Shown here piece after piece: positions 1 to 18,240 of a DNA stretch of 48,047 nt. Position numbers and translations under genes: made by a program. How positions within the stretch are numbered: the stretch's first letter is position 1; the number at the start of each line of letters is the position of its first letter. A model generated the notes under the pieces. It was not told the DNA's origin. It worked only from the letters and a program-made list of their open reading frames with translations, and searched no databases. Origin of the DNA: a virus (taxonomy: Duplodnaviria; Caudoviricetes); IMG/VR virus record IMGVR_UViG_3300036790_000104, positions 1 to 48,047 of that record; one strand, 5' to 3'.

Positions 1-127
1 ATTTAAAAATATAATTTCATGCTCTCTAAGCCATTGCAATGCAGCGCGATGCAGCGAAAAATAATTCTTGCGCATATGCTCAGGCCGCGCTATGCTTTCC
101 CCATGCCGCTTTTATCGCATATGCGCT
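1..127. repeat. 127-bp terminal direct repeat (copy 1); circular assembly overlap
   Basis: 1-127 identical to 47921-48047; length equals a common assembler k-mer. Confidence 0.95.
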
Positions 128-225
128 TTTCCCTCCCTCCCATATCTATATGCCAGCCGAGCGGCTTCACCCTTAACCTTAACCCTCGCGGGCGAAACCT
201 TGTGGCCCTTTACCGGATTTAACCT

Positions 226-594
226 ATGCTAAACGAAAATAAAGCACTTTTATTCAAACTTGTGGGTGATGAGCAAATACTCAATAACCCGTATCAGACA
301 CAGCCGGTCATTCTTGATTCTGGTAAGTTTTGTTGTTCTGACGGAGAGTGCATCCATGATATATGGTTTAGTCCTACTGGCTTTGGATATAAGGACGATG
401 CAAAGTCAATTGGTTATTTACTTTTACCTGTGCAGGTTTTTCTCAATGAACACAAGGCTAGAAACTATAAATTTTCGACCGTTTCAACTTCAGTTTCAGC
501 CCTGCTGTTAAAAGACTTCAAAGCCAAAATTCCTTTGCCGGTTTGCCCGGTTGAGCACCAAAAGTTGTTCTTCCCTGCTTTATTTATTAAATGA
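226..594 (+). CDS. hypothetical early protein
   Basis: 122-aa ORF, ATGA-coupled to next gene. Confidence 0.6.
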   Translation: MLNENKALLFKLVGDEQILNNPYQTQPVILDSGKFCCSDGECIHDIWFSPTGFGYKDDAKSIGYLLLPVQVFLNEHKARNYKFSTVSTSVSALLLKDFKAKIPLPVCPVEHQKLFFPALFIK

Positions 595-788
595 CGCTCA
601 CACAACTCCAAACCATCGTCGGTTACGCCATTGGCAAATACGGAGGCGAGAGTGAAGTGTCGGTTGACTTTCTCTCAGACCAACATCCACGTTTAAATAA
701 CCTCGACGACGGTCGCATAAACGACATAACAATAAACAAACCAGAGCTACAGTCATCGCAGGTGGTGATGTGGTTGGATTTACCATGA
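591..788 (+). CDS. hypothetical protein
   Basis: 65-aa ORF, ATGA overlaps on both sides. Confidence 0.65.
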   Translation: MTLTQLQTIVGYAIGKYGGESEVSVDFLSDQHPRLNNLDDGRINDITINKPELQSSQVVMWLDLP

Positions 789-1075
789 CCCAGCTTGACC
801 CCATCGTCCGGCTGTTCGCTCAATACGGCATACAGCGTCGTCGCATCGACAACTGGCGACAACTCAATCCTCCCATCGTGGGAGCTATACATGCACTGCC
901 CAACCTACGTGGCCACTGTGTCGCAACCGACGGCATCGAGTGCCTTGTAGTCCAACCCACCGGCAAAACCTTCATCGGTCATTATGACTTTTTCATCCGC
1001 GACCCAGTTGAGACGTCCTCAGCACGCGGGCGAGAACAAACCAGAACGCAGAGATTGAAAGAGAAATACCAATGA
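785..1075 (+). CDS. hypothetical protein
   Basis: ATG at 785 overlaps upstream TGA; ATGA-coupled downstream. Confidence 0.7.
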   Translation: MTQLDPIVRLFAQYGIQRRRIDNWRQLNPPIVGAIHALPNLRGHCVATDGIECLVVQPTGKTFIGHYDFFIRDPVETSSARGREQTRTQRLKEKYQ

Positions 1076-1278
1076 AAAAACATTCATCTATCACATTAGA
1101 GCGGGTAATGGAAGCTGTCGAACGTCAATCAACAGGAACCGATAACCCAGGTTTCTGTATCGAATGTGGCGAAGAACAAGATGGTTGCGAACCAGACGCA
1201 CGTGAATATGGATGTGAATCGTGCGAAACCAATACAGTTTACGGCGCAGAAGAACTGCTTATGATGATGGGCGTGTAA
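1072..1278 (+). CDS. small zinc-ribbon protein
   Basis: CIEC...CESC motif pair. Confidence 0.75.
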   Translation: MKKHSSITLERVMEAVERQSTGTDNPGFCIECGEEQDGCEPDAREYGCESCETNTVYGAEELLMMMGV

Positions 1279-1299
1279 TATTCACAAAGTGAAACTTAC
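1275..1299 (+). promoter_or_regulatory. 25-bp palindromic site 1 (parS-like/operator)
   Basis: GTAATATTCACAAAGTGAAACTTAC; its TAA is the stop of 1072..1278. Confidence 0.9.
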
Positions 1300-1318
1300 T
1301 TTCTACAAAAGCTCAAAT

Positions 1319-1543
1319 ATGACAATACAAATCACCTTTGAAGTCAACCCCACTGACTACGGTAAACTAGCTGACTGCACTCCCACCCAGGGAGTAGAGA
1401 TAGCTAATGCTATTTACAACGGCTTCGCTGACCCGCCCAACACTGCACAAGTTCTTATTGAACCCGACGTTCACGAAGCGGGAGAAGGAGCACTTACTAC
1501 AAATATAACCTTCCCCTACACCGCCCCAGAGGCCGCGCAATGA
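1319..1543 (+). CDS. hypothetical protein
   Basis: ATG at 1319 after A-rich leader; ATGA-coupled downstream. Confidence 0.65.
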   Translation: MTIQITFEVNPTDYGKLADCTPTQGVEIANAIYNGFADPPNTAQVLIEPDVHEAGEGALTTNITFPYTAPEAAQ

Positions 1544-1752
1544 CGCCCAATATTCCTGATTCCGAGTGGATCGTTATCGAAACCAACGAACCCTATGAAT
1601 GCACACGTTGGTGGGTTTCTAACCAACAATACAACAATCTTCATGCTATAAACGGCTATATGGAGTTTGAATGTTTCAACCCGAAGGCCGCCCAATGGCT
1701 TCGCGATACCTTAAACACTTTGTCGCCCTCGGCGACATCTACACAAACCTAA
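1540..1752 (+). CDS. hypothetical protein
   Basis: 70-aa ORF, ATGA-coupled. Confidence 0.65.
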   Translation: MTPNIPDSEWIVIETNEPYECTRWWVSNQQYNNLHAINGYMEFECFNPKAAQWLRDTLNTLSPSATSTQT

Positions 1753-1777
1753 ACCTAAAACAAACAGAAAGAACAAA

Positions 1778-2539
1778 ATGACACAAAGAACAGAAACTCG
1801 CTTCTCCTCACTTGGACTCAAGGACGGCTTCCGCTTCGGCATTTACCCTAGCGTTGAAGTCATCTCGGAAGACCTCGGAGCTGATGCGTCGAAGAAGATC
1901 ACTGAAATCGTCAACAGGCAGTTGGCGGCGCACACGACAGCAACGCAAGCCCGCGACCAGTTCACCACGGACATCGAACGCGTGACCGGCTTCAAATACC
2001 TGACCGAGGAAGTCGAAGGTAAGGGCAAGAACGCGGGGAAGACCCGCACCGTGCCAGCGGAGAATGAAAAGGAATACGTCAACCGTTTCCGCAAAGCCTG
2101 CGTTGAGGGGTATACTTTCCATCCCGCCTCCGACCTCGGCACCAAGGCCGAGAGTGCAGCAGGTGAAGAAGACGGCGAGACCTCGATTGCCGATCAACTC
2201 AAACACTTGGCGCACTCTCACACCCACTCTACAGCCGATGAAATCGAAGCGTGGTTACAGACGTTGGCCAACCTCCGTCTCTACAACCTCGATGCACGTG
2301 TGACCGAACGCACAGCAAAGGAAAAGGGCCTGCCGAAGTATGCACTGGAAGGTGCAGCGGCCATCTACGCAGCAGGTGCAGAACGTATCGCCCACTGGCG
2401 CAAGCGGTTCTCGAAGAACGGCGTCACGCTGGCGGAGTTCGACGTCACCGACGAAGCGGCGAAGGAATCAAACCTCAAAACCCTGGCTACCGCTATCGTC
2501 GCAAACGAAGCGGCGGAGTCGGCCAATAAATACAAATAA
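1778..2539 (+). CDS. hypothetical protein (charged, helical)
   Basis: 253-aa ORF with long A-rich leader AAACAAACAGAAAGAACAAAATG. Confidence 0.85.
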   Translation: MTQRTETRFSSLGLKDGFRFGIYPSVEVISEDLGADASKKITEIVNRQLAAHTTATQARDQFTTDIERVTGFKYLTEEVEGKGKNAGKTRTVPAENEKEYVNRFRKACVEGYTFHPASDLGTKAESAAGEEDGETSIADQLKHLAHSHTHSTADEIEAWLQTLANLRLYNLDARVTERTAKEKGLPKYALEGAAAIYAAGAERIAHWRKRFSKNGVTLAEFDVTDEAAKESNLKTLATAIVANEAAESANKYK

Positions 2540-2647
2540 ATGAACAACAACACAAAGGCACGTTGGATTCGGACTACAAAAGCCCAACGACGTGCTGCCG
2601 CCTTAGATAAGCGAAAAAGTAAACGGGTCAAAGTAGGCCGACCGTAA
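2540..2647 (+). CDS. small basic protein (35 aa)
   Basis: ATG directly after upstream TAA; MNNNTKARWIRTTKAQRRAAALDKRKSKRVKVGRP. Confidence 0.5.
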   Translation: MNNNTKARWIRTTKAQRRAAALDKRKSKRVKVGRP

Positions 2648-2719
2648 CCCCACACCCCCGCTTTGTGTGCTTTGTGTACAGATGGGCAAACGAAGCGGGG
2701 TAGTGGTGTTATACTAAAT

Positions 2720-2870
2720 GAGCAAGTGGCGGAAGATAGACGCCTTAGATAAAAACTAAAGTGAAAAAGAGAAAGCAAAACTTGGTGTTGCGTTGGATTA
2801 ACAGTCCAAAGATTCGAGTTCAAATCTCGTTCTCCTTCAATGCAGGTATCAAATCCTGCCTTGCTCACCA
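2720..2870 (+). ncRNA. 151-nt tRNA-like RNA with encoded CCA end and a nested cloverleaf
   Basis: Acceptor stem GAGCAAG/CTTGCTC + ACCA; D-arm-like GCG-GAAGATAGA-CGC; T-arm-like GCAGG-TATCAAAT-CCTGC. Confidence 0.75.
2766..2838 (+). tRNA. degenerate inner tRNA-like cloverleaf (loop triplet AAC)
   Basis: GCAA/TTGC D-stem with GG in loop; TTGGA-TTAACAG-TCCAA; CGAG-TTCAAAT-CTCG; AAAGAGA/TCTCCTT 6 of 7 pairs; 73 nt. Confidence 0.55.
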
Positions 2871-2896
2871 AATTTAGTAAAAAGGAGGTGATGATT

Positions 2897-3010
2897 ATGC
2901 TTGGAACTGTGCTATTAGTTGATGACTCTATGTCACAACGCCATCTAGCCGAATTGTCCAAGACGTATCGCCCCGAACGGCAATGCCAAGTAGGGGCACA
3001 ATTTTTATGA
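2897..3010 (+). CDS. 37-aa peptide behind an extended Shine-Dalgarno
   Basis: AAAGGAGGTGAT at 2881-2892; stop overlaps next ATG (ATGA). Confidence 0.5.
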   Translation: MLGTVLLVDDSMSQRHLAELSKTYRPERQCQVGAQFL

Positions 3011-3255
3011 CAACTATACAACACCCAAGCGGCGGGCGCATCACCGGTTTCGCCCAACCTCACATACGTGCCAACTGGCCCACCGCTGTCAGAGGTAAAC
3101 TGCTCACTGATCGACGCATCGCTCACTACCAGAAACAAGGCGTCTATGGGTCGAACGGCTTTCTGCAAAACGCAAAACAACAAACCCAGAAAAAACAACA
3201 ACGTCGCGAACCAGCAAAAGCTCGGTTGGAGAGGTTGTTGAGAAAATATCAATGA
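3007..3255 (+). CDS. hypothetical basic protein
   Basis: ATGA-coupled ORF MTTIQHPSGG...LLRKYQ. Confidence 0.65.
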   Translation: MTTIQHPSGGRITGFAQPHIRANWPTAVRGKLLTDRRIAHYQKQGVYGSNGFLQNAKQQTQKKQQRREPAKARLERLLRKYQ

Positions 3256-3334
3256 CTTTTCCTATCGTATGTCGTGGTAAACGGCAGCACATCGTGCGAA
3301 GACACAAATCGGCAGCGATAGGATTTTCTCAAAC

Positions 3335-3359
3335 GTAATATTCACAAAGTGAAACTTAC
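3335..3359 (+). promoter_or_regulatory. 25-bp palindromic site 2
   Basis: GTAATATTCACAAAGTGAAACTTAC, 12 bp upstream of ATG 3372. Confidence 0.9.
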
Positions 3360-3371
3360 CCAAATCTATAT

Positions 3372-3587
3372 ATGACCATTTCCACCGCCGACTTTATTCA
3401 GCTACTCGACGCTCAGACAACGTATAAAAAAGAACGCCAACAACTTACCCTTGAAGTGCTCAACACCACCGAATACGACTTTGAGGTCACGGTTCGTATA
3501 CGAATGCCCCGTGACCAAGCACAATTCATCCCGATGCGTCATGCTTTAGCTAATTATACAGGGAAGGGAATAAATTATGGTGGTTGA
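3372..3587 (+). CDS. hypothetical protein
   Basis: 71-aa ORF in early operon. Confidence 0.7.
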   Translation: MTISTADFIQLLDAQTTYKKERQQLTLEVLNTTEYDFEVTVRIRMPRDQAQFIPMRHALANYTGKGINYGG

Positions 3588-4143
3588 TCAAGCGGGTCTA
3601 CCCTACTACAAACAGGAGAAATCCTTCCAACGTTACGCCCGCATCATTGCCGACGCAGTTGATATGTTTCCTGACGTCATCACCCACGACCCCTCGCAAA
3701 GCGATCCCCCGTTGTCGGTTGAAACATTCAACAGTCGGTTTACCTATGCAGTGCGTTCTGCTATTGAATTTGGTTACACCCACCCACGCATCGATCAAGC
3801 CCAATTTTATAAAGTGCACAACCAGATAAAATGCGTCATTCGTCAAAACTGCTGTGTCATCGGCTCGCTACAAGGCATTAAGGAGTGGGATAATGTTAGA
3901 TCAAAAGCCTCACCCTCATTCGACACGGCTAAAGCTTTAACAGCCACCCAAAACGAATATGAGTTCGCCGGAACAGACCTGGAAATCCTCTCACTGTGCA
4001 AACTCCTGGCACGCAAAACCATGTCACCGCAACCCCTTTTCTTTATCACAAACCCCTCAATAGAACTCCAACAATTTATAAACGAACATGATGTGCTGTT
4101 GGAACAAGACACAAAAGATAAAACAAAATGGAGGTTGATATGA
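3577..4143 (+). CDS. hypothetical protein
   Basis: 188-aa ORF overlapping neighbours by a few bases. Confidence 0.8.
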   Translation: MVVDQAGLPYYKQEKSFQRYARIIADAVDMFPDVITHDPSQSDPPLSVETFNSRFTYAVRSAIEFGYTHPRIDQAQFYKVHNQIKCVIRQNCCVIGSLQGIKEWDNVRSKASPSFDTAKALTATQNEYEFAGTDLEILSLCKLLARKTMSPQPLFFITNPSIELQQFINEHDVLLEQDTKDKTKWRLI

Positions 4144-4409
4144 AAACACCGAAAGAATGGTTGGCTATAAATTATGACAAATTTCAAGAATTGTATCCAG
4201 ACACCTGTAAACTTATTGATCTAATCCGCCGCATCCAGCAAGACGCGCAGCCGAAGTGGGTTTCTGGTGAAATAGCAAAAACATGGCCAGATTTCGCTAT
4301 CGCTATTGTCAAGGATGAAAACTTCGCTAACATTAGGAGTGTAGAAGATATTAAAAACTTCAAAAACACCGAAGGGTTAAAGTTTTTAAATTTAGATGGA
4401 ATACTATGA
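4140..4409 (+). CDS. hypothetical protein
   Basis: ATGA-coupled; MKTPKEWL. Confidence 0.7.
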   Translation: MKTPKEWLAINYDKFQELYPDTCKLIDLIRRIQQDAQPKWVSGEIAKTWPDFAIAIVKDENFANIRSVEDIKNFKNTEGLKFLNLDGIL

Positions 4410-4768
4410 CCAACGAAGAACAGAACATAGCAGTTGCGGAGTTGGTGGGGTGGAAGAAAACAAAAGATAGTTGGATTTCACCAACTGGCAGTTCAAATTC
4501 TAGGTTTAGAAGTGATGAGTTTGGGTTAACTAATGCTAAGATTCCAGACGAGGATATTATACCAAATTATGGCGAAGACCTGAATGCGATGCACGAGGCG
4601 GAGAAGAAATTATCTATGGGTCAACTTGTGGAGTATGGGAAACATCTTAACAGAATGGATTTGAAATACAATTATGGCTATGTTGAAACGGTAATTAGTT
4701 CTACCGCCTCCCAACGCCGTGAAGCTCTTTTACGAACAATCGGTAAATACAAAGAACAAAAACAATGA
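4406..4768 (+). CDS. phage ABA-sandwich-like protein
   Basis: IAVAELVGW...PNYGEDLNAMHEAEKKL...ASQRREALL pattern. Confidence 0.6.
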   Translation: MTNEEQNIAVAELVGWKKTKDSWISPTGSSNSRFRSDEFGLTNAKIPDEDIIPNYGEDLNAMHEAEKKLSMGQLVEYGKHLNRMDLKYNYGYVETVISSTASQRREALLRTIGKYKEQKQ

Positions 4769-5229
4769 ACACAAACTTCACCGACCCATACAGCGGCGAC
4801 AAGAAAAACTGTCTCCGCTGTTCCATCCACCTCGGACGTGATGACCTCGGCTTCCTGAAATCACTAGACCCTGAGCATCACAGTCGCGCCACCACCTTCG
4901 GAATCCTTTTCACAAAACTAATACATGAACTCAAACGAAATAACATCACAGAATACGATCCTGCCCGCTACCGAACCGCCATCGGCGGCCTCACCATTAC
5001 CCTCGGACAAACAGAACGAACCAATGACCCAGGACGAGCTGGAAGCCCCCCTTCTCTCAGTAATGCCCACCAAAGCGATAGTCGAGATGACGGACGAGGA
5101 GTTGCAGCAGTTCCACAGCCGGCACAGGCAGCACCGTCTGTCGATGCAGGTATTACAATCCCACCTAAGAGGAAACGCCGCACCAGCGTCAAAGCCGTCG
5201 CCAACGAAGGAGAAGGAGTTGGCTCTTAA
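4765..5229 (+). CDS. hypothetical protein with low-complexity C-terminal tail
   Basis: 154-aa ORF, ATGA-coupled. Confidence 0.7.
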   Translation: MNTNFTDPYSGDKKNCLRCSIHLGRDDLGFLKSLDPEHHSRATTFGILFTKLIHELKRNNITEYDPARYRTAIGGLTITLGQTERTNDPGRAGSPPSLSNAHQSDSRDDGRGVAAVPQPAQAAPSVDAGITIPPKRKRRTSVKAVANEGEGVGS

Positions 5230-5245
5230 AGGAAAATATGTATGA
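5024..5245 (+). CDS. hypothetical protein overlapping the previous gene in another frame
   Basis: A-rich leader CAAACAGAACGAACCAATG; stop is ATGA-coupled to 5242. Confidence 0.6.
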   Translation: MTQDELEAPLLSVMPTKAIVEMTDEELQQFHSRHRQHRLSMQVLQSHLRGNAAPASKPSPTKEKELALKGKYV

Positions 5246-5358
5246 AAACTAAATGGTATCATTTTTGGAACCCACAAAGCGGGTTTATAGGTGGCTGTAT
5301 ATTAGGTATAATATTTTTTGTTTTAATTATTACTTTAAAATGCTTAATTTACCCCTAA
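5242..5358 (+). CDS. small membrane protein (38 aa)
   Basis: hydrophobic FIGGCILGIIFFVLIITL. Confidence 0.5.
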   Translation: MKTKWYHFWNPQSGFIGGCILGIIFFVLIITLKCLIYP

Positions 5359-6374
5359 TCGACGGCTGTCTTATCCTAGACAACTCCGCCCTATCAGTCC
5401 TTCAAGCGTGTCCATACGAATTTGAAACCGCTCTTGTCAAAAAGCGCGTATCGTCAGCAGGTAAAGCCGGGGCGAACTTCGGTTCCGCATGTCACATCGC
5501 CCTTAAGATGAGATATGACATCTACGGCAACGAACCCTGCTCACTCGTTCCCAATATCTTGGCTGCGATGGACGACCACTTCATGCAATCGCCCGAACCC
5601 GTCGGCGACCACCGCAACTTCAACATGGCATCAGAGTGGTTAGCCGCATATAATCGTATGTATAAGAAGGAGCCGTTTGACATTTTGAAACTCCACGACG
5701 GGCGGAGCTTTGTTGAGCGGTCGTTTTTGAGACCCTTCGGTGAAATCGCCGACGAGGGTGCGATTATTAAAGTAGACCCAACAATCGCTATTCAATCTTG
5801 GATTGAAAACTGTAAAAGTTTCTGCATCACTCCTATACTATATAGCGGCCGTATCGACCTTGGTATATCTGACAACGGCGAGTGGGTCTTAGATCACAAA
5901 ACCGCTTACCAATTCGGCAAAGCCTTCCAGTTGGAAATGGCTTCGACCCCACAGATGCGTGGATACTGCTGGGAGTTCAAACACTACTATGGCCGGATGC
6001 CAAAGGGTTATATCATAAACGCTATGCGCGTTCGACCGCCGGTTAAAGGAGCCGAGTATGACCCATCGTTGCTATTTCGCACTGACGGTAAAGATCCTGA
6101 TTTCGTTCGCTTACCCTTCACCGTCACCGAACAAGACATCACGGAATGGGAGCAAAACACTTTCGCCTTGATTGAAGAACTGGTGTGGTGTGCTCAACGC
6201 CCCCATTATCCTAAACATAAGAAGAACTGTGTCGGTAAATACGGCCCGTGTCAATTTTATGAACTGTGTAACAACGTCGACCCCTTACACAGAGATAGCT
6301 ATTTGGCGAGTCCGGTGTTTATGGATAACACCTGGAGCGCGCTGAACAAACCAGAAACCGCAAAGGAAGAATGA
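5340..6374 (+). CDS. PD-(D/E)XK Cas4/RecB-like exonuclease
   Basis: FGSACH, VERSF, GRIDL, VLDHKT, QMRGYCW, C-terminal Cys cluster CVGKYGPCQFYELC. Confidence 0.85.
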   Translation: MLNLPLIDGCLILDNSALSVLQACPYEFETALVKKRVSSAGKAGANFGSACHIALKMRYDIYGNEPCSLVPNILAAMDDHFMQSPEPVGDHRNFNMASEWLAAYNRMYKKEPFDILKLHDGRSFVERSFLRPFGEIADEGAIIKVDPTIAIQSWIENCKSFCITPILYSGRIDLGISDNGEWVLDHKTAYQFGKAFQLEMASTPQMRGYCWEFKHYYGRMPKGYIINAMRVRPPVKGAEYDPSLLFRTDGKDPDFVRLPFTVTEQDITEWEQNTFALIEELVWCAQRPHYPKHKKNCVGKYGPCQFYELCNNVDPLHRDSYLASPVFMDNTWSALNKPETAKEE

Positions 6375-6853
6375 GTCTAAAATCCCGAATACAAAATAAT
6401 CAAGACGGTGACTTCTCATGGCAGTTAAGACGTTCCTTTTGGAACGGCCTGATCATGGGTATTTATGGTTCAAAACTAACGGTTCTTGAAACTGAATACA
6501 AGGAAAACGTCGATATCGAAATTGAAGAACAACGAATAAACATCACTACCAAAACCCGCGAAGCTCTTGTCGCTAGTCTTCAAATCTTTGGAGGAAAGTG
6601 GAATAAAGAGAAAAACACATGGGAGGAAACCGTGATTGACTATGTTCAAGAAATTGAACATCCTTTGTTATATACCTTTACTATTGTCTGTAAAGGGGCA
6701 CCCCCACCTTCATGCAAAATCATTGAGGAAGATGTCGAAATTCCGGCTCACACCATCAAACGCAAACGCATTGAATGTCCGAAGTCAACAGCAGAACAAC
6801 CCGTTCCCATCGAAACCATTGAAGGTGTTGAACTCGTGGAGGCGGTTGAATGA
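6371..6853 (+). CDS. hypothetical protein
   Basis: 160-aa ORF, ATGA-coupled both sides. Confidence 0.75.
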   Translation: MSLKSRIQNNQDGDFSWQLRRSFWNGLIMGIYGSKLTVLETEYKENVDIEIEEQRINITTKTREALVASLQIFGGKWNKEKNTWEETVIDYVQEIEHPLLYTFTIVCKGAPPPSCKIIEEDVEIPAHTIKRKRIECPKSTAEQPVPIETIEGVELVEAVE

Positions 6854-7599
6854 TAACAATCCCAACAGAAGACACACCAGCACAACGAACCGATCCCCGG
6901 TTGTTGATGATATACGGTGCACCAAAAATCGGCAAATCGACCATTTTATCACTCCTACCCAAAGGCAAATACCTCATTCTCTCAACCGACCCACGTGGTT
7001 GGGAGTTCCTCGGTGGCCGCTACATCCAAATAAACAACATCCTAGAATTCGTCGAAACCGAACGTGCCATCAAAGCAATGAAAGAACGTCCTGACTTCGT
7101 CGGCATCGACACCGTGGATAACGTCGAAGACTGGGCTAAGATTGAAGCGACCCGCTTATACAAGCTAACACCGGTCGGTAAAAACTTCCAAGGCGATAGC
7201 ATACTATCCCTACCCAACGGCGGTGGATACGACACCTTCTGGAACGTTTTCACCAACGTCATCACCCGCTGTTTGGACTTGGCTCCCCAGGTCATATTCA
7301 CTGGTCACGTCCGAGACAAACTCATCGGCCAGATCAACGGTCAGGATGAGGTATTCACAAAAGACCTCAATCTCACGGGAAAGGTGCGAACCATCTTCAC
7401 CTCAATGGTCGATAGCACAGGCTACCTCTCCCGCGACAAAGACTCAAACCTAAACATCGCCTTCAAAACCCATGACCTCATCGTCAACGGTTCAAGGGCA
7501 GCACACCTGCGGGGCGTGAATATGAAGATGGAAGGTTCTAAATTTGACTGGTCACGTATCTATCCAGACTACTACAATAAAATAAAAGGGACATTATGA
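6850..7599 (+). CDS. Sak4-like AAA/RecA-fold ATPase (ssDNA-annealing recombinase)
   Basis: Walker A IYGAPKIGKST, Walker B VGIDT, FTGH; lies between exonuclease and SSB-like gene. Confidence 0.8.
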   Translation: MITIPTEDTPAQRTDPRLLMIYGAPKIGKSTILSLLPKGKYLILSTDPRGWEFLGGRYIQINNILEFVETERAIKAMKERPDFVGIDTVDNVEDWAKIEATRLYKLTPVGKNFQGDSILSLPNGGGYDTFWNVFTNVITRCLDLAPQVIFTGHVRDKLIGQINGQDEVFTKDLNLTGKVRTIFTSMVDSTGYLSRDKDSNLNIAFKTHDLIVNGSRAAHLRGVNMKMEGSKFDWSRIYPDYYNKIKGTL

Positions 7600-8021
7600 C
7601 TGAAATCGAAATGCGAAATTTAAAAGTAAAGACACCCGCCACCATACAAGAACTAACTAAATTTATTGAGGAAATAACAACCCAAGAACATGACTATGGC
7701 ACATGTGTTTATGCTATGTCTTTGTCGGCGGTAGCGGCTTTTAAATACGCAGCTAGTCAGTTAGGAGTTACAGGTTTTCAAGCCTCTTGTGCCGATTTGG
7801 ATGTAATACGTCGCACTCGTTCTTTAGACTGCCCTTTTATCATCCTTAAAGCTGAGGATTTACTTTATCCTCAATATGACTTGAGAAGAACACTTGAAGA
7901 CTTCATTCAACAACAAACAAAATGGTGTAAAGAACAAGCTGAACTTAGACTAAAAGAGCCAAACAAAGCATGTGAAGAAGTTGAAAATCACTGGAGATTA
8001 TTAGCCGAGACTAAAGTATGA
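7596..8021 (+). CDS. hypothetical protein
   Basis: 141-aa ORF, ATGA-coupled. Confidence 0.75.
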   Translation: MTEIEMRNLKVKTPATIQELTKFIEEITTQEHDYGTCVYAMSLSAVAAFKYAASQLGVTGFQASCADLDVIRRTRSLDCPFIILKAEDLLYPQYDLRRTLEDFIQQQTKWCKEQAELRLKEPNKACEEVENHWRLLAETKV

Positions 8022-8284
8022 TAACCACATACATCGAACTTACCCTTAAAGCGGACAACACCCGCCACCTCATCCCCATCGAAGCCATAAAGCGGGTGGA
8101 TGAAATCAAAAAACCCCCCGGCACCGGGCTTGATAGTAAACCTACCGAAGGGGAAACCTACTGCTCGATTCTTGTGGATAATTTCACTATGCACGTCGGT
8201 GAAACATACAATGACGTGAAAGCCGAAATCAACAAAATCGCATTAGCATTATTTAAATTCCAACTCGCACAAAATGAGCACTAA
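8018..8284 (+). CDS. hypothetical protein
   Basis: 88-aa ORF, ATGA-coupled. Confidence 0.7.
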   Translation: MITTYIELTLKADNTRHLIPIEAIKRVDEIKKPPGTGLDSKPTEGETYCSILVDNFTMHVGETYNDVKAEINKIALALFKFQLAQNEH

Positions 8285-8630
8285 TAACGGTAACGAACAA
8301 CTCTCTTCCCCAGAAGACCGCCAACGAGCGGTGCGTACAGCTTTAGCCAACTCAAAATGGGCCAAAGATGCCGTTTCGACAAAAGAATCATCGGACGAAC
8401 ACAAGGCACAACTACGTCTCGAAGAAGCCACCGTGCGCATCTTCAACCTGTGCCGAGAGGTAAAAGAGCTGGATATTGCAAACGGTGGAACGTATGATGA
8501 AACTGCAATGTCCAAACTCATCATGTCACAATGGATCGAGTTCTTCCGCAAGGAGTCTAAGGAAGGTGTAATCCACATGGCTTGTATCGTCACAACCGGC
8601 TCGATGCTGACAGCTATCAGCGAGCTGTAA
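8274..8630 (+). CDS. hypothetical protein
   Basis: 118-aa ORF ending in palindromic site 3. Confidence 0.75.
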   Translation: MSTNNGNEQLSSPEDRQRAVRTALANSKWAKDAVSTKESSDEHKAQLRLEEATVRIFNLCREVKELDIANGGTYDETAMSKLIMSQWIEFFRKESKEGVIHMACIVTTGSMLTAISEL

Positions 8631-8651
8631 TATTCACAAAGTGAATCTTAC
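8627..8651 (+). promoter_or_regulatory. 25-bp palindromic site 3
   Basis: GTAATATTCACAAAGTGAATCTTAC; its TAA is the stop of 8274..8630. Confidence 0.9.
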
Positions 8652-8723
8652 TTAAGAAACAATTTCACGTTACGTTAACGTGGATACAAAGCAAAACAAA
8701 CAAAAACAAAAAGCAAAGCATAT

Positions 8724-9194
8724 ATGACTACAGATCAAATTGACACATCAAACCCCTTGGACATGCCCTTAGGTGACATCAAAACCGAACGCCCTCTTAT
8801 CAAACCCGGCATCCTAGCCGACTTCAAGGTCGTGAAATGTTCCCTCATGTCGAATGATTCAAAAACCTTCCGCGTCGAACTGGAAGCACTCAACGACCTG
8901 GATGCGAAGGACGGAGGTGGCATCATTCCTGCTGCAAGGGCCAAGATGTTCGACACCATCAACACCGAACCCACTGGTCAATCCAACTGGGAAATCATTC
9001 AACTCAACTGTGCCGAATTCATCCAAGCAGTTGATCCCACCGCCACCATCCGCACGATGCGCGACAAGCCCGAACACTTCCAGGGTCGCACTGTGCGCAT
9101 TCGTGTTGGTTTACAGAATGAGGGCACGGGTCGCGATGGCGTGTGGCGTGCGTCGCAAAACCGCATTGCTGAGTATATTAAAAAAGCCCAATAG
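8724..9194 (+). CDS. DUF669-like single-stranded DNA-binding protein
   Basis: RPLIKPG...GRTVRIRV...NRIAEY pattern; position after Sak4-like gene; long A-rich leader. Confidence 0.6.
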   Translation: MTTDQIDTSNPLDMPLGDIKTERPLIKPGILADFKVVKCSLMSNDSKTFRVELEALNDLDAKDGGGIIPAARAKMFDTINTEPTGQSNWEIIQLNCAEFIQAVDPTATIRTMRDKPEHFQGRTVRIRVGLQNEGTGRDGVWRASQNRIAEYIKKAQ

Positions 9195-9448
9195 TTAAAC
9201 CGTGGTGATCGTGCCGGGTATTGGGTTTTCTGGTTAGCTCAACTTCTGGTTATTGGGAACACCATAGTGGCGGGAGCACGGAGTTAACGCCACATATTTT
9301 TTACATTATGTCTTTTGGAAAACAATTTGCTGAAAGGTTAATAAAAAACACCTTTGTTGTTTATAAAGGTGAAATTAAACCACCAAAGGGAGTAAGTGCA
9401 GCGTCCTTCGCTATATCATTAACTATAGCCTCTTTTAAAATAAACAAA

Positions 9449-9865
9449 ATGAAAATCCATATAGAAACAATTCCTCATTCTTCACAACGCTATCCAACAG
9501 TTGGTGATTGGTTTTACGATACAGATGGCACTCTCCATATAAAGGTGTCACAAATGTCCGACGAACGCTACGCCATTCTCGTCGCCATACATGAATTAAT
9601 CGAAACGGTGTTATGTAAACATCGCCATATCTCACAAGAAAGTGTCGATAAATTCGACATGGCTTTTGAAGCGGAACGCGAAGCTTTAATCAAAACAGGT
9701 GGAACCGCAAAACAACACGCAGAAATCGTTGGAGCAGAACCCGGAGATGATCCAGCCGCCCCATATAACAAAGAACATTGTTTTGCAACTGGAATTGAGC
9801 GTTTAATGGCAGCAGAGTTAGATGTAAAATGGGTTACATACGATAACGAAATACAAAACCTATGA
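9449..9865 (+). CDS. HExxE zincin-like metalloprotein
   Basis: LVAIHELIE...EPGDDPAAPYNKEHCFATGIE; upstream in-frame starts also possible. Confidence 0.65.
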   Translation: MKIHIETIPHSSQRYPTVGDWFYDTDGTLHIKVSQMSDERYAILVAIHELIETVLCKHRHISQESVDKFDMAFEAEREALIKTGGTAKQHAEIVGAEPGDDPAAPYNKEHCFATGIERLMAAELDVKWVTYDNEIQNL

Positions 9866-10041
9866 ACTACCTCCACCACTACCACCACTGGCCAGAAGCC
9901 TTGTTCATACTGGGTTTAGCCGTTCTATGGTTCATCATCATCTTCTGGGCGATCTTACACCAAGCCACTAAACCGCATTGTCCGGTGTGTTGGTGTATCT
10001 TAGACGATAACGGTAAATGTTTAAACTGCCAACAATATTGA
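9862..10041 (+). CDS. small membrane protein with zinc ribbon
   Basis: TM segment LFILGLAVLWFIIIFWAIL then CPVC...CLNC; ATGA-coupled. Confidence 0.6.
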   Translation: MNYLHHYHHWPEALFILGLAVLWFIIIFWAILHQATKPHCPVCWCILDDNGKCLNCQQY

Positions 10042-10042
10042 T

Positions 10043-11278
10043 ATGAAAATAAGTGTAATCGAACCCGGCGGTTTAAACATCGAACTCGCTATCCTGTTCG
10101 CCGCTAACGGCCATGACGTCGGTTACTTCACCGAATACCGCGAAGCCTTCCCCCGTGGAGATCGGCAATCGTTGGGCACCGGTTTCCCAGGTGTCCACAA
10201 ATTTGAACACATATCGGACGCCCTCGACCACGGCGACATCATTATATGTCCTGACACTCACTCCTGCGACTACCTCCAACTGGCGAAGAAGTATGGCAAG
10301 CCAACATGGGGAGCCGGAAAAGCCGAACGGTTCGAGCAGGACAGGCTATTCGCAAAACAGATGTTAGCTAAACTCGGTCTACCCGTCGGCCCATACTCCC
10401 ACGGCATTGGATTAGAAAGTCTCGAAAATGAACTCAAAAAAACAAAAGACCGCTTCGTCAAATTTCCCGGTTCCTACCGAGGTATCGCAGAAACCAAACA
10501 CCACTACGACTGGGAGAAAACGAAAAGAGAATGGTGGGGCGAGTTACTCAGTGGACTCGGACCTGACCAGGATACAATACAATGGCTTAGTGAAACACCA
10601 ATTAAACACATCATGGAAGTTGCTGCGGATCAACTTACAGTTAATGGAGAATACTCTAAACCAACCCTCATTGGCATTGAAGACAAGGACTCTGCTTACA
10701 TTGGTAAAATCTTCGCAGAACCACCTAAATGCCTTGTTGAGACTAATCAAAAACTCTCAGCTTACATGCGCTCATGCAACGCCAAAACCTTCTTCTCACC
10801 CGAACTCATGCTTGGGGAAGACGGCAAGGCGTATTTAACTGACCCTTGTCTACGAACAGGGCATCCGGTTTCGTCGGTGCAGTTGAGGATATATAAGAAC
10901 CTTTGTAATTATATAATCTTGGCAGCACATAGTGAAATGAACACGCCAATCAAACCCACTCATAAATACGGCATCGCCCTTGAAATCAAAAGTGACCAAC
11001 TGGACGATGGCTGGCTAGAAATACAATTCGATGAAAAACGACGCCACACCATCCACCTCCAATGTGCCCGTAAAGTCAAAGACGCTTACTACGTCATACC
11101 CAAATCTTTCATTGCAGCTACTATTGTGGGTCTTGGTAACACCATCGAAGAAGCGGAAAAAGAGATACATAAAACACTAGAATCCTTCTCGTGTGCGGGG
11201 ATGTCCTACGACCTCAACTCCATTGAGAAGGTTAAGGAAACTATGAAGAAAGGAAAAGATTGTGGCATCGACTTCTAA
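10043..11278 (+). CDS. PurD-like ATP-grasp amidoligase
   Basis: WGAGKAERFEQDRLFAKQMLAKLGLP, FVK, YLTDPCLRTGHP resemble PurD ATP-grasp motifs. Confidence 0.75.
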   Translation: MKISVIEPGGLNIELAILFAANGHDVGYFTEYREAFPRGDRQSLGTGFPGVHKFEHISDALDHGDIIICPDTHSCDYLQLAKKYGKPTWGAGKAERFEQDRLFAKQMLAKLGLPVGPYSHGIGLESLENELKKTKDRFVKFPGSYRGIAETKHHYDWEKTKREWWGELLSGLGPDQDTIQWLSETPIKHIMEVAADQLTVNGEYSKPTLIGIEDKDSAYIGKIFAEPPKCLVETNQKLSAYMRSCNAKTFFSPELMLGEDGKAYLTDPCLRTGHPVSSVQLRIYKNLCNYIILAAHSEMNTPIKPTHKYGIALEIKSDQLDDGWLEIQFDEKRRHTIHLQCARKVKDAYYVIPKSFIAATIVGLGNTIEEAEKEIHKTLESFSCAGMSYDLNSIEKVKETMKKGKDCGIDF

Positions 11279-11480
11279 CATAAATAACTTCACTTTAGTT
11301 AAATGTACAGAATGTGGTGGCGTTGGCCAAATTTTAGTGCCAATTAAACGAAAACCAAACCTAACCGGCATCCTCGACCCGAAGTGGGAGAAGTGGGCAC
11401 TTAACGTCAAAAACCGCGGACAACAAATATACGCAATCAGAGTAACCTATGCACCTCAAAACAAACGAAATAATCATTAA
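11262..11480 (+). CDS. small protein with CxxCGG motif
   Basis: KCTECGGVG; fills gap between ATP-grasp and ParB genes. Confidence 0.5.
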   Translation: MASTSNINNFTLVKCTECGGVGQILVPIKRKPNLTGILDPKWEKWALNVKNRGQQIYAIRVTYAPQNKRNNH

Positions 11481-12675
11481 CGCTCGACAACGTATCGACC
11501 TCGGCAACATCGACGAGATGGTCGAATCCATGTCCCGCTTGGGCCAAATCACCGCCATTACTGTCGAGCGGGTCGGTCTCGAATACCACTTAGTTGCTGG
11601 TATGCGACGTCTCACAGCGGCTAAAAAAATGCAATGGGAGACCATCGAAGTCATCTTCAAAGAGAACTTGACGGAAATGCAACGTCAAGAAATGGAACTC
11701 GAAGAGGACATCAAACGTAAGGATCGGACGTGGCAAGAGCGTTTACTCGCTGTTCAGAAACTCAACACCCTCAAACAATACAGCGACCCTAAGTGGACAC
11801 GCCAAAAACTGGCCGATACCGTCGGTCAAAGCGTGGGCCATGTAAGCGAAAGTATGCAAATCGCCGAGGCGCTCAAACGCACTCAGGGGCAAACCGACGA
11901 GTGGTCTTTGAAACTATGGGCTTGTCCCAACATCCACGAAGCTTTACAGCACTTGGCTCTACGTGTCGAAGACGAAGTGTATGCCGAGATCGTGCGACGG
12001 AAGAAAGCCGCCGCCTTTGGGGTTCCTATTTCTTCACCCATTGTAGAAGAACAAAACGAAAGTAATATTCACAAAGTGAATCTTACAGAGGAGCCGCCAG
12101 CTCGCAAGGTGCAGATTTACAACCGTTTCGCCGAACAAGACGAATGCCAATACGCACTTCTTTTCCACCCGCCTGAACTAGTTCTATCAAACCTCGCCCT
12201 ATTAAAAAGCGACGGCTGTGCTATCATGTGGTTCCAAGGCTTCGGTGCATGGTTCGAAACAATGGAAGCTCTCGACGGCACTGACATCGGTATCGCCGCT
12301 TCCTACCCCCTAATCTGGAATACCCTCAAGGGTTTAACCAACCCCGTTATACCCTTCACCCGCTCATACCAATGCGGCCTATTCCTCGCTCGACTTGCTT
12401 ATCGAAATCCCTCACCCGAAGCACCAAAACCCGGCGTCATGACCGCTCCAATCACCGGCCCTTCAATCCCCCAATCTATCATACAACAATCTTTAGACGC
12501 CATCTGCCCCGAAGGTGCAAAAATCTGGATGCCGTTTGGTGGGCCGGTTGTTGAAGTGGCACAGGCGAATCGGATACCGGTGTGGGTTTGTCCAGATGAT
12601 GCTACGAACGTGGAAACGCTGGCCGACCTCCAAGAGTTTTACAAATCACAATATGGAAAGGTGGAGTTTGTATGA
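11449..12675 (+). CDS. ParB-like CTPase/HTH protein fused to a degenerate DNA methyltransferase fold
   Basis: RQR, LVAGMRRLTAA (GxxRxxA), ELEEDIKRKD, HTH WTRQKLADTVGQSVGHVS; C-terminal FHPPE...LLKSDG...PLIW...IWMPFGG. Confidence 0.8.
   Translation: MHLKTNEIIINARQRIDLGNIDEMVESMSRLGQITAITVERVGLEYHLVAGMRRLTAAKKMQWETIEVIFKENLTEMQRQEMELEEDIKRKDRTWQERLLAVQKLNTLKQYSDPKWTRQKLADTVGQSVGHVSESMQIAEALKRTQGQTDEWSLKLWACPNIHEALQHLALRVEDEVYAEIVRRKKAAAFGVPISSPIVEEQNESNIHKVNLTEEPPARKVQIYNRFAEQDECQYALLFHPPELVLSNLALLKSDGCAIMWFQGFGAWFETMEALDGTDIGIAASYPLIWNTLKGLTNPVIPFTRSYQCGLFLARLAYRNPSPEAPKPGVMTAPITGPSIPQSIIQQSLDAICPEGAKIWMPFGGPVVEVAQANRIPVWVCPDDATNVETLADLQEFYKSQYGKVEFV
12062..12086 (+). promoter_or_regulatory. 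25-bp palindromic site 4 (inside the parB-like gene)
   Basis: GTAATATTCACAAAGTGAATCTTAC encoding SNIHKVNLT in the inter-domain linker. Confidence 0.9.
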
Positions 12676-12833
12676 ACAAAGAACAAACAACAGTTAAACC
12701 AAAAACAATCTACGATATGCCCCCTTCACGCCGTAAACACTTCATCGAATGTCCGGGTTGTCACAAATACTTCGACACCCGCTCAAAGGAAGAAATCAAA
12801 AAACATGAACTCTGTCCTCGCCAACTAAAATGA
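12672..12833 (+). CDS. small zinc-finger protein (53 aa)
   Basis: CPGC...HELC; ATGA-coupled. Confidence 0.55.
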   Translation: MNKEQTTVKPKTIYDMPPSRRKHFIECPGCHKYFDTRSKEEIKKHELCPRQLK

Positions 12834-13007
12834 ACTCAAAATATAAATTAAATCAAAAAGTTTTTATCGAGGGACGACCTACTCCTGGACAAATTATAGA
12901 TATTTATCAAAATGTTAATAAAAAAGACATTTTTGTTTATCGCGTTGATTTTGATTGGGACAGTGTTGTTTGGCTTTGGGAGGCTGATATACAACGAGGA
13001 GAATAAA

Positions 13008-13193
13008 ATGAAACCCTGCCCCTTTTGCAACTCAACCGACTTTAACGACGTCTGGACTGGCTCGAACTACTACATCCAGTGCTACAACTGCGGCGCTCGC
13101 GGCCCCTCTGTCCCATCGTTTGAAGAAGCCGACCAGAATACACGACGTCTTTGTTACGAAAAATGGAACCAAGCTGAAAGGAGACCACAATGA
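13008..13193 (+). CDS. Lar-like restriction-alleviation zinc-ribbon protein
   Basis: MKPCPFC...IQCYNCGARGP...KWN; GAGGAG upstream. Confidence 0.75.
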   Translation: MKPCPFCNSTDFNDVWTGSNYYIQCYNCGARGPSVPSFEEADQNTRRLCYEKWNQAERRPQ

Positions 13194-13372
13194 AAAAAAT
13201 TGAATGGTGTGATTTTTGTAAAACCCCCTATAACGGAGAAAGAGGTTGGACTTTTTTATCTTCAGTAGACCGTTCTTTTGATTATGATTTATGTCCAGCA
13301 TGTAGCGTTTCTTTAGGAATGTATATTATCAAAAAACAAAATGAAAAACCCAGGATTAGTAACCAAAGCTGA
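13190..13372 (+). CDS. small zinc-ribbon protein
   Basis: CDFC...DLCPAC. Confidence 0.65.
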   Translation: MKKIEWCDFCKTPYNGERGWTFLSSVDRSFDYDLCPACSVSLGMYIIKKQNEKPRISNQS

Positions 13373-13814
13373 TGTGCTCAACTCCTCGAAAAATGAGGAC
13401 TGGCCGACAAATCAGGAGTGGTTTGATGAATGGAATAGTGAATTTGGTTTCACATTAGATGCGGCGTCGAATCATGTGAACGCCAAATGTCACAAACACT
13501 ACACCCTCGAATACGACGGCCTAACCCATTCATGGAAGGGGGAACGGGTCTTTATTAACCCCCCATATAACGATCTCGACTCATGGGTTCGTAAGGCAAG
13601 AGATGAAATGATCATGAATAAAACTTTCACTGTCATGTTCATGCCAGCACGCACACAAAATAACTTCTGGCACAACTATGTATGGGATAGCACAAAGCAC
13701 ACCTTTAGACGCGGCATCCAAGTCCGCTTTCTAAAACGAATGCAATTCGCAGATAGTGCCGGCCCATGCCCCTTTGGTTTGATGTTGTTAATCTTTAACC
13801 CAGAACTTTTATGA
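13341..13814 (+). CDS. dam: phage N6-adenine DNA methyltransferase (T1 Dam-like)
   Basis: DWPT, FGFTLDAA, DGLTHSW, FINPPY, PART, IQVRFL. Confidence 0.85.
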   Translation: MKNPGLVTKADVLNSSKNEDWPTNQEWFDEWNSEFGFTLDAASNHVNAKCHKHYTLEYDGLTHSWKGERVFINPPYNDLDSWVRKARDEMIMNKTFTVMFMPARTQNNFWHNYVWDSTKHTFRRGIQVRFLKRMQFADSAGPCPFGLMLLIFNPELL

Positions 13815-13956
13815 CTTTCCTAATACTCATTTTCCCATTTGAGTGGTATTTAACAGTCGAAACTTCAAACGTTGACTACACCGACGGAACCATTCAACGA
13901 AACTGTCACGGCTATCGCTTTTTATGTTTTGAATTACGAGTAATTAAAAGACTAAC

Positions 13957-14283
13957 ATGACCACCTACCGTCTACACCTCCCCCACGACACTTGTATCGT
14001 TAAAGTTTCCAACGACATCATCATCGAAGCTCCGGCTGAGTTTATCAAACACAACCGTGAATGGTATCCATTAGTGCAGATGTTGAACCGCCTGGGTATT
14101 GAAATTGAACCCTTACTCCAAGAGGGTAAATCAGACTTCATCACCTATGGCGATGCGATGTACGAACTCCGCTACACCGACCACAACCGAACACAAATCA
14201 AACGTATATCGAAACACACAGCCGAGAAGGTGGTAAATATACGGTTTGAACAACTCCCTCAACTCCTAAGGATAGCATTGTGA
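13957..14283 (+). CDS. hypothetical protein
   Basis: 108-aa ORF coupled to next gene. Confidence 0.7.
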   Translation: MTTYRLHLPHDTCIVKVSNDIIIEAPAEFIKHNREWYPLVQMLNRLGIEIEPLLQEGKSDFITYGDAMYELRYTDHNRTQIKRISKHTAEKVVNIRFEQLPQLLRIAL

Positions 14284-15266
14284 ACAAATTCCCCACTATC
14301 CCCTGTGCTCACAAGCTCGCTATCGTCTCACCCCTTATCACAACCGAGGAACTCGCGTATCAAGAAGTCCTCACCGGGAAAAACCAAGAGCAATTTAGAC
14401 AGGTGTTGGGGAAAGCCGGTCTTGCTTTAGCCTCATGTTTCATCGGTTCTCTGCATGAACCCGACCAGCTTAAACTCGACCTCGCTCAATTCAACCCCAA
14501 CATCATCGTAACCCTTGGAACTACGGCCCTAAACTACGCCCATACCGGCACACTCTCAACCAAACTCAAAATCACAAAATGGCGTGGTTCCTTATACGAA
14601 TCCTCCCACTTCGGCCATCCAAACCGAAAATGCTTATTCACCCAACACCCAGCCAACGTCTGGGGTGGTTACATCCGGGGCCAATGGCGATACGGAGACT
14701 ACAAACAAGCCCCCTACTTCGCCTTTGATCTCAAACGCGCAGTCTCCGAAGCTCTAAACCCTACTCTAACCCTCCTCAAACGGCTCCTCCTAACCTCACC
14801 CACCTATGATCAAACAATTGAAAACCTCCGTTCACTTCGCCTATCTAAGTCACCTGTGTCGCTTGACATTGAGGGCGGAGTCAATACTATGTCCTGTATT
14901 TCCTTCGCTACGCTCCCCACTCTCGCATTTATCGTTCCATTTGTTAGAAAGGATGGGACATCTTATTGGACGGAACAGGAGGAGTGTGTCATCTGGAGAG
15001 AGTTAGCCCTTACGTTGGAAGACCCTGACATCCCTAAGTGTTTGCAGAACTCACTATACGACACCTTCGTTCTTCAATATTCGTATGGGATTCGAGTTCG
15101 CAACGTGGTAGATGACACAATGTTGAAACATTGGAGCTTATACTGCGAGCTGCGAAAATCCCTAGGTGTCCAAACATCAATATACACACGTCAGCCTTAC
15201 TATAAGTTTATGAGGCTGCAAAACGAAGACGACGAACCTGCGGAAAAAAATGAAGACTCAAACTAA
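14280..15266 (+). CDS. DNA polymerase A N-terminal part: UDG-like domain + 3'-5' exonuclease (ExoI/II)
   Basis: PNIIVTLGTTAL, KWRGS, TQHPA (family-4 UDG-like); SLDIEG, QNSLYD, DTMLKH. Confidence 0.8.
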   Translation: MNKFPTIPCAHKLAIVSPLITTEELAYQEVLTGKNQEQFRQVLGKAGLALASCFIGSLHEPDQLKLDLAQFNPNIIVTLGTTALNYAHTGTLSTKLKITKWRGSLYESSHFGHPNRKCLFTQHPANVWGGYIRGQWRYGDYKQAPYFAFDLKRAVSEALNPTLTLLKRLLLTSPTYDQTIENLRSLRLSKSPVSLDIEGGVNTMSCISFATLPTLAFIVPFVRKDGTSYWTEQEECVIWRELALTLEDPDIPKCLQNSLYDTFVLQYSYGIRVRNVVDDTMLKHWSLYCELRKSLGVQTSIYTRQPYYKFMRLQNEDDEPAEKNEDSN

Positions 15267-15275
15267 GAAAACCCA

Positions 15276-16973: not shown

Positions 16974-16974
16974 C

Positions 16975-18219: not shown

Positions 18220-18240
18220 TATTCACTTTGTGAAACTTAC
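18216..18240. promoter_or_regulatory. 25-bp palindromic site 5 at the convergence of both arms
   Basis: GTAATATTCACTTTGTGAAACTTAC; supplies the stop codons of both convergent genes (18217-18219 and 18237-18239). Confidence 0.9.

Follow-up and report, generated by a model that had tools for sequence, protein, structure and literature searches.

A tRNA-like frame of the leucine type, carrying a free insert, recurs in phages from soil, peat and water, including a subfamily whose elbow is remodelled; in one phage the insert holds a complete tRNA-derived cloverleaf. This phage is the window, as we call the whole stretch of DNA analysed, a complete record of 48,047 bases with direct terminal repeats. 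The conserved part is the outer frame; the nesting is not the conserved unit, and neither layer is a canonical tRNA. The locus shows that the leucine-type design can take up a whole tRNA gene.

Structure of the nested element

An earlier note, made from the letters of the window, had described the element (Table 1) as a tRNA within a tRNA. The unconstrained minimum-energy fold of 2720-2870 is this nested shape (z -3.0; 0 of 200 shuffles as good), and all the parts that the note had assigned to the outer shell, a 7-bp acceptor, ACCA, a Leu-like D arm, a hairpin and an 8-nt T loop, were found at their positions. The outer acceptor pairs have probabilities of 0.98-1.0 and are followed directly by ACCA at 2867-2870; the D arm proper spans 2729-2743, with a single G and then A in its loop, and the T arm proper spans 2842-2859. 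The frame has the A73, U8-A14 and A15-U48 of class II tRNA-Leu; absent are the class II elbow (G18-U55, G19-C56, 7-nt T loop) and an anticodon arm with a 5-bp stem and canonical leucine loop. The 4-bp hairpin in the anticodon-arm position, with A32 and the triplet AAA, is not a canonical anticodon arm. Its loop, compared on either strand with those of the 238 distinct ARAGORN tRNAs in the loci collected, matched none (0/238), and the idea that it is an inverted Lys loop was dropped (0 exact matches). The outer acceptor and T stems are 7/5, as against the 8/4 or 9/3 that distinguish allo-tRNAs in the account of PMC5389517.

Table 1. Features of the element and its flanks (positions in the window)
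Feature	Position	Strand	Basis or remarks
253-aa gene, marker of the orthologous slot	1778-2539	+	in L058/L014/L065 a homologue (50% identity) immediately precedes the frame
Long hairpin immediately 5' of the frame	2644-2711	+	folding of 2640-2900
Leader 2712-2719, complementary to trailer 2872-2879	2712-2879	+	sequence
Whole RNA gene, leucine-type tRNA frame with 98-nt insert	2720-2870	+	predicted ends; fold, family
Outer acceptor stem, 5' strand	2720-2726	+	perfect 7 bp with 2860-2866; all 7 pairs covary in the family
U8, G9 and Leu-type D arm (3-bp stem, A14, A15, 9-nt loop)	2727-2743	+	without G18-G19 doublet
4-bp hairpin with 7-nt loop, anticodon-arm position	2745-2759	+	pair probabilities 0.6-0.78
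Inner tRNA-derived domain, variable-arm position	2762-2839	+	ARAGORN; RF00005
Inner D arm, GG in loop	2775-2791	+	RF00005, fold
Inner anticodon arm	2793-2809	+	loop 2798-2804, reverse-complemented, gives the tRNA-Asn(GUU) loop
Inner T arm, 4 bp, canonical 7-nt loop	2815-2829	+	RF00005, fold
U48 (partner of A15) and outer T arm with 8-nt loop	2841-2859	+	U48 in 29/30 frames, 8-nt loop in 15/30
Outer acceptor, 3' strand, discriminator A73, encoded CCA	2860-2870	+	A73 in 20/30 frames, encoded CCA in 11/30
Shine-Dalgarno-like site, strong, near-perfect, 10 nt past CCA	2881-2892	+	sequence
37-aa ORF just 3' of CCA	2897-3010	+	sequence; no Pfam match

The inner cloverleaf at 2766-2838 was likewise borne out: ARAGORN reads it as tRNA-Val(aac), its sole tRNA call in the 48 kb, and RF00005 scores it at 43.7 bits (E 1e-6), above the gathering threshold of 29 bits, while matching no part of the outer frame. 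Folded on its own the inner domain is no better than shuffled sequence (z -0.68; 46/200 shuffles as good), so that the support for it comes from the tRNA-model score. The 6/7 acceptor-like stem of the earlier note is present as listed, but the energy model prefers to this register an offset closing helix, 2762-2765/2836-2839 with 2769-2772/2831-2834. The inner elbow is canonical, with GG in the D loop and a T loop of 7 nt. Departures from the tRNA consensus are A8, A-C at 3:70, U-U at 49:65, G38 and the lack of a CCA; A8, the U-U first pair of the T stem and the missing CCA had escaped the earlier note. That note had also called both loop triplets, AAA and AAC, unusual, and neither loop as written occurs among the 238.

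Searches for relatives of the inner domain gave none. With blastn the element found only short matches at E >= 1 in 50,697 phage records and among plasmids; a viral scan requiring both the inner loop and the T loop returned two loci of identical context, neither tRNA-like; and model R1 of the inner element, built from the window sequence only, reached at best E 0.48 over one set of 27 loci and E 0.13 over another of 24, with no homologue. No tmRNA, YrlA Y RNA or GOLLD match was seen by Rfam in window positions 1-12000 at E <= 1, nor any tmRNA by ARAGORN anywhere in the window.

The frame is conserved across phages

An alignment of the exonuclease encoded downstream of the element served to fetch 54 viral and 80 metagenome loci, and a structural scan of these showed a similar frame enclosing inserts of different length. 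Further phages, without protein similarity to the ORFs near the element, came from two pattern scans of the viral collection. A stricter scan, covering L003-L137, L258-L283 and the window, gave 35 matches representing 30 distinct frames, against 0 in reversed sequence. Rfam has no family for the frame.

In an alignment of 29 frames, its rows selected for their pairing, complementary bases fill 98.9% of the 435 cells, and both partners vary in 12 of the 15 pairs. Because of that choice of rows, a test with free acceptors is cleaner. When only D arm and T stem were fixed, 12 loci were found, the T loop being 8 nt in 9 of them though its length was not specified; among their acceptors, left free in the search, 65 of 70 cells pair in 10 distinct stems, compared with 41.2 +/- 4.8 in shuffles, of which 0 in 10000 reached the observed value. 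Fixing only the 8-nt T arm and CCA gave 13 loci, two of them repeating contigs from the preceding search; a complementary 5' strand is present in 12, and 9 of the 13 D loops begin like that of the window. The covariation that the earlier note had asked of both cloverleaves is found in the outer frame (65/70 cells against 41), but the inner element offered no homologue in which to look for it.

Of 48 related phage records, 13 contain the D-arm pattern, each a single time, against 0 in the control; two of these 13 show no T arm or acceptor within the 260 nt examined. Conservation of U48, A73 and CCA among the 30 frames is given in Table 1. The elbow is more variable: the D loop has GG in 6/30 frames, and T loops of 7, 8, 9 and 10 nt occur in 7, 15, 7 and 1 of them. 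Two frames, L260 669-813 and L265 2994-3137, share an identical 92-nt insert and have T loops of 8 nt in one and 7 nt in the other, so the extra T-loop base can be gained or lost. The same 8-nt T loop was seen in tRNA-like genes of normal size in L001 (~1490-1562, missed by ARAGORN) and L273 (1501-1574). A second elbow variant, in L031, L058, L075, L078 and L086, combines a 9-nt T loop without C56 and an A/G-rich D loop of 9 nt. At L051 7320-7583 there are two adjacent enlarged tRNA-like genes, called by ARAGORN in intron mode only.

Frames at L278, L282 and L259 lie within tRNA arrays and beside tmRNA genes. L259, a 31-kb viral contig, has at 1048-3096 a frame between two tmRNA matches (118.7 and 106.3 bits), in a cluster of tRNA-like RNAs that also includes a weak YrlA-like match and two tRNAs nearby.

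Inserts vary, and among the frames examined only that of the window holds a nested cloverleaf

Inserts in the family measure 38-184 nt and share no anticodon arm; none of the others is convincingly similar to that of the window. The L280 insert beat 300/300 shuffles in its alignment with the window's, but this was one of 29 tests and the alignment is gappy, and the similarity was not accepted. The closest relative within reach is a single sequence shared by L058, L014 and L065, which occupies the same slot, downstream of a protein 50% identical to that preceding the element in the window. Its frame shows compensatory changes in acceptor, D and T stems, and its insert is 91 nt long and lacks a T-loop consensus. 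A separate four-arm cloverleaf, also without T-loop consensus, lies ~55 nt upstream of the L058 frame (7408-7475) and scores E 1.6 with model R1.

Rfam scans of 31 loci from the frame searches found no tRNA within any insert; frames L005, L010, L075, L078, L081 and L086, as well as L278 and L264, fall outside those scans. The inner T-loop motif is present in 2/30 inserts, that of the window and an unpaired case in L265. Among the frames examined, only that of the window holds a complete tRNA in its insert.

A first scan for the nested pattern returned a single locus, which is not nested. Nested forms do occur in other sequences. When two T loops 12-42 nt apart were sought, at least 120 loci appeared, spread over about half the viral collection, and among those listed at least 32 distinct frame-like sequences could be parsed, a few being tandem genes or simple duplications. 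One family of 187 nt, with at least six variants (L144, L170, L171, L174, L175, L198), has an inner D arm, anticodon-like arm and T arm; its frame is of the Leu type, with the tRNA-derived inner domain placed at the anticodon position, and L198 carries one double change that preserves an inner stem pair. Another, of 118-119 nt and at least 12 variants, has an inner T arm. Recurrent tRNA frames of 114-124 nt with two T arms resemble RNA2 of phage T5; two-T-arm frames were noted in L149, L153, L159, L164, L176, L178, L183, L185, L189, L208, L240 and copies, in L191, L192 and L216, and in L145, L207 and L173.

Origin of the odd inner anticodon loop

Read on the plus strand the inner loop matches 0/238 tRNA loops; on the minus strand it reads exactly as the loop does in 8 of the 10 tRNA-Asn(GUU) genes. 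The whole 17-nt arm, again on the minus strand, matches an Asn arm at 14 positions and a Lys arm at 16. Since the two strands of the stem are complementary to each other, an inversion of the loop in place yields the loop observed, and this single event would account for A34 together with G38, which is rare (17/238 tRNAs). Hairpin-loop inversion is a recognised type of mutation. We consider it fairly probable that the inner element is a captured tRNA whose loop was later inverted, and likely that the captured gene was a tRNA-Asn. The inversion was noticed post hoc, and 55 of 1024 canonical-looking loops have their reverse complement among the loops observed; D and T halves of the element are no nearer to Asn than to other tRNA types.

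The inner loop motif is found also, there with two closing pairs, in the orthologous L058 insert; it is found in 0/28 others. In shuffles the motif arises at 1.5%, and at 0.19% with the two closing pairs, in a test chosen after the motif had been seen. Aligned with the inner domain, the L058 insert scores 30.5, a value reached in 5/3000 shuffles and equalled or beaten by the best windows of 5/16 unrelated inserts. We treat the shared motif as a lead, not a result. The inverted-loop signature is not general in the family (2/30 inserts, the window being one).

Relation to known RNAs

Stable RNAs of unknown function have been annotated in phages T5 and T4 for decades. In the T5 record NC_005859, RNA1 and RNA2 are entered as stable and tRNA-like, with functions unknown. 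RNA1 (30501-30644, 144 nt) is similar in size to the window RNA and, like it, has a Leu-type D arm, a T arm and an acceptor-like stem, a folded insert replacing the anticodon and variable arms. It differs in that its D loop retains GG, its T loop has 7 nt, its insert is without a tRNA and it sits in a tRNA array. RNA2 (32959-33083) shares with the window a tRNA frame that has a second T arm inside its insert; unlike the window RNA it nests only that T arm, in the anticodon-arm position, with no inner D or anticodon arm, and has an 8-bp acceptor and a D arm not of the Leu type. No T5 match emerged when the 50,697 phage records were searched by blastn with the window region, and the likeness to RNA1 and RNA2 is architectural, not sequence homology. 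These two RNAs make function testable in E. coli.

The earlier note had looked instead to the stable RNAs of T4. Species 1 and 2 (rnaC and rnaD, 139 and 119 nt) are indeed stable RNAs from a phage tRNA cluster, and rnaC ends in a canonical T arm, but such an arm was not seen in rnaD and both lack a Leu-type D arm and a nested cloverleaf; the comparison is weaker than that with T5. Bacterial class II tRNA-Leu shares with the frame the 7-bp acceptor, U8, 3-bp D stem, A14, A15-U48, A73 and CCA, and the window RNA departs from it in lacking G18-G19 and a Leu anticodon arm, in its T loop of 8 nt and in its variable domain of ~78 nt. The engineered tRNA scaffold described in PMC3753655, our working model for processing and stability, also uses acceptor, D and T arms to hold an insert of any kind; this artificial RNA keeps a canonical elbow and has its insert in the anticodon stem. 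GOLLD with an embedded tRNA-Phe (PMC12990946) likewise places a tRNA sequence inside a larger phage-associated RNA, which in that description is large, multi-domain and oligomerising and is not a tRNA frame. A catalogue of 10,006 candidate viral RNAs speaks in general terms of tRNA-like candidates in the part consulted (PMC10690425), and its set may include the frame family. No description of a tRNA frame holding a tRNA was found in the titles and abstract openings searched, a source that covers older and subscription papers poorly. New here are the complete inner cloverleaf in the variable-arm position, its flipped loop, and membership of the remodelled-elbow subfamily.

Possible functions

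The family conserves the acceptor/T end and not an anticodon, which turns the functional question to the factors that read that end. The reading we prefer, tentatively and at a little less than even confidence, is that the RNA is a tRNA frame with a swappable insert, processed like a tRNA, non-decoding, and a decoy for host factors that read the acceptor and T end. It would be transcribed with the early genes, cut at its 5' end by RNase P and trimmed at its 3' end to the encoded CCA, and the frame would give stability as it does in engineered tRNA scaffolds; we suggest such processing and stability because a scaffold of the same acceptor, T and D arms is processed in E. coli and protects its insert, according to an excerpt of PMC3753655. 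Neither layer would decode codons. The inner tRNA, captured and then inverted in its loop, would be lineage-specific cargo that adds a second canonical elbow. The mimic or decoy proposed in the earlier note fits the conserved frame, its compensatory changes and the T5 RNAs, although the nesting itself is not what is conserved. Papers on phage counters to tRNA nucleases describe the supply of functional or resistant tRNAs, and the word decoy appears in them 0 times (PMC11464382, PMC11555353, PMC12851939), so the decoy role is one that we infer. Two features of the family count against it: CCA is encoded in only 11/30 frames, and the remodelled elbow (GG in 6/30, T loops of 8-10 nt in 23/30) makes a less faithful mimic.

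The frame could instead be a processing signal, at which RNase P and 3' nucleases would cut to divide and stabilise the early polycistronic transcript, the insert being filler. We think this plausible but unlikely. All 17 standard-linker matches in the exonuclease loci lie on the gene strand, the copy is single in each genome, the insert varies freely, many frames do not encode CCA, and in the window a strong ribosome-binding site follows the CCA; yet frames occur also in tRNA arrays and beside tmRNA genes (L278, L282, L259), their position relative to the exonuclease gene ranges from -5561 to +3999, and A15/U48 and A73, not obviously needed for cutting alone, are retained. Charging by the host LeuRS, which would make the frame a non-ribosomal leucine carrier or a sink for EF-Tu, is very unlikely. 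LeuRS requires A73 and core pairs, and the anticodon arm is dispensable for leucylation (PMC2377443, in excerpt), as the retained A73, U8-A14 and A15-U48 would allow; the same excerpt has G18-U55 and G19-C56 as critical and a longer variable arm as harmful, which makes charging doubtful here, as A takes the place of G19 in the window RNA, whose T loop has 8 nt and whose variable domain has ~78 nt.

Other readings concern the inner element. Its loop might be a selected anti-anticodon that binds host tRNA-Asn loop to loop, either shielding it from anticodon nucleases or sequestering it. Complementarity to the tRNA-Asn loop is exact (7/7), and the loop motif recurs, with two closing pairs, in the orthologous L058 insert; none of 28 others has it. 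We hold this decidedly unlikely nonetheless, since the motif is shared with one relative only and was tested after being seen, the L058 alignment is no better than those of 5/16 unrelated inserts, R1 misses that insert, and the signature is restricted to 2/30 inserts including the window's own. Were the flipped loop selected, it would be an unusual RNA-RNA means of manipulating a host tRNA; no RNA-only counter-defence by an anti-anticodon is described in the literature searched. That the whole locus is a relic in decay, in which two broken tRNA genes, or the scar of an integration, happen to be nested, is highly improbable. The perfect outer stems of the window and their covariation across the family speak against it, as do inner and outer 3' ends that are not duplicates, unlike those of the att-like L214, and the lack of an integrase among the 33 ORFs scanned. 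In favour of a relic, the inner element departs from the tRNA consensus in three respects and lacks a homologue, the slot is volatile, L058 having another insert there and a separate cloverleaf ~55 nt upstream, and a 12-nt piece of the element is repeated at 2599-2610. Such a reading may hold for the inner element alone. Finally, the RNA might be a precursor that releases the inner tRNA, as the earlier note had entertained, or an intron-containing tRNA, which it had named as an alternative, spliced here to tRNA-Phe or tRNA-Leu. tRNAs embedded in larger RNAs do occur, as GOLLD illustrates (PMC12990946, in the part consulted), and with the inner part removed ARAGORN, at a threshold lowered to 80%, calls the remainder tRNA-Phe(aaa). 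This pair of explanations is nevertheless scarcely credible. No intron family matches window positions 1-12000 in Rfam at E <= 1, ARAGORN in intron mode finds only the inner element, and what is left after removal is no canonical tRNA, for its anticodon arm has A32 and a stem of 4 bp and its elbow is non-canonical. Release of a working inner tRNA is unlikely, given a domain without U8 or CCA, with mismatched acceptor and T stems and an apparently inverted loop.

Flanking sequences and phage context

Folding of 2640-2900, which takes in the hairpin 5' of the frame, gives z -4.8 with 0/200 shuffles as good. Pairing of leader with trailer (Table 1) would lengthen the acceptor stem in a precursor; such complementarity was not found as a trait of the family (summed score 119, compared with 116.9 in shuffles). 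A scan for sigma-70 promoters found none at the element, and a -10-like hexamer overlaps the trailer-complementary leader. By eye, neither the Shine-Dalgarno-like site nor the 37-aa ORF is seen after the L058 frame. An antisense role within the phage was discarded: the longest complement is 12 nt, equalled or exceeded in 31/100 shuffles.

The element is no assembly artefact, since a contig of run X3, which may come from the same campaign, is identical over 2402-2985. Run X7 represents a related strain that skips 2537-2644. A single contig of 167 nt from run X6, identical to 2741-2907, was considered as evidence of expression and given no weight, being of low depth and presumably DNA; the rest of positions 1-20000 has no match in that run. 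The runs that best match the window are soil metagenomes, and none of 8 runs is listed as containing the RNA. GTDB genomes contained neither an exonuclease relative nor a frame match. Locus searches with single proteins of the window returned 0 and 1 loci.

PHROGs matches were obtained for 9 of 33 ORFs scanned: an exonuclease, a Sak4-like annealing protein, a ParB-like protein, a DNA methyltransferase, two pieces of DNA polymerase, a primase, the major head protein and the large terminase. None of the 33 is an integrase. The element lies on the plus strand amid small, mostly unannotated genes upstream of the exonuclease, preceded directly by the 253-aa gene and then a 35-aa ORF (2540-2647); the latter contains, at 2599-2610, a 12-nt copy of element bases 2741-2752. 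A 411-aa ORF at 10043-11278 has no PHROGs or Pfam match and, judged by eye, may be ATP-grasp-like. A partly palindromic motif of 28 nt occurs five times in the window, at 1274-1301, 3334-3361, 8626-8653, 12061-12088 and 18215-18242, its copies 82-100% alike, and is likely a phage promoter or operator.
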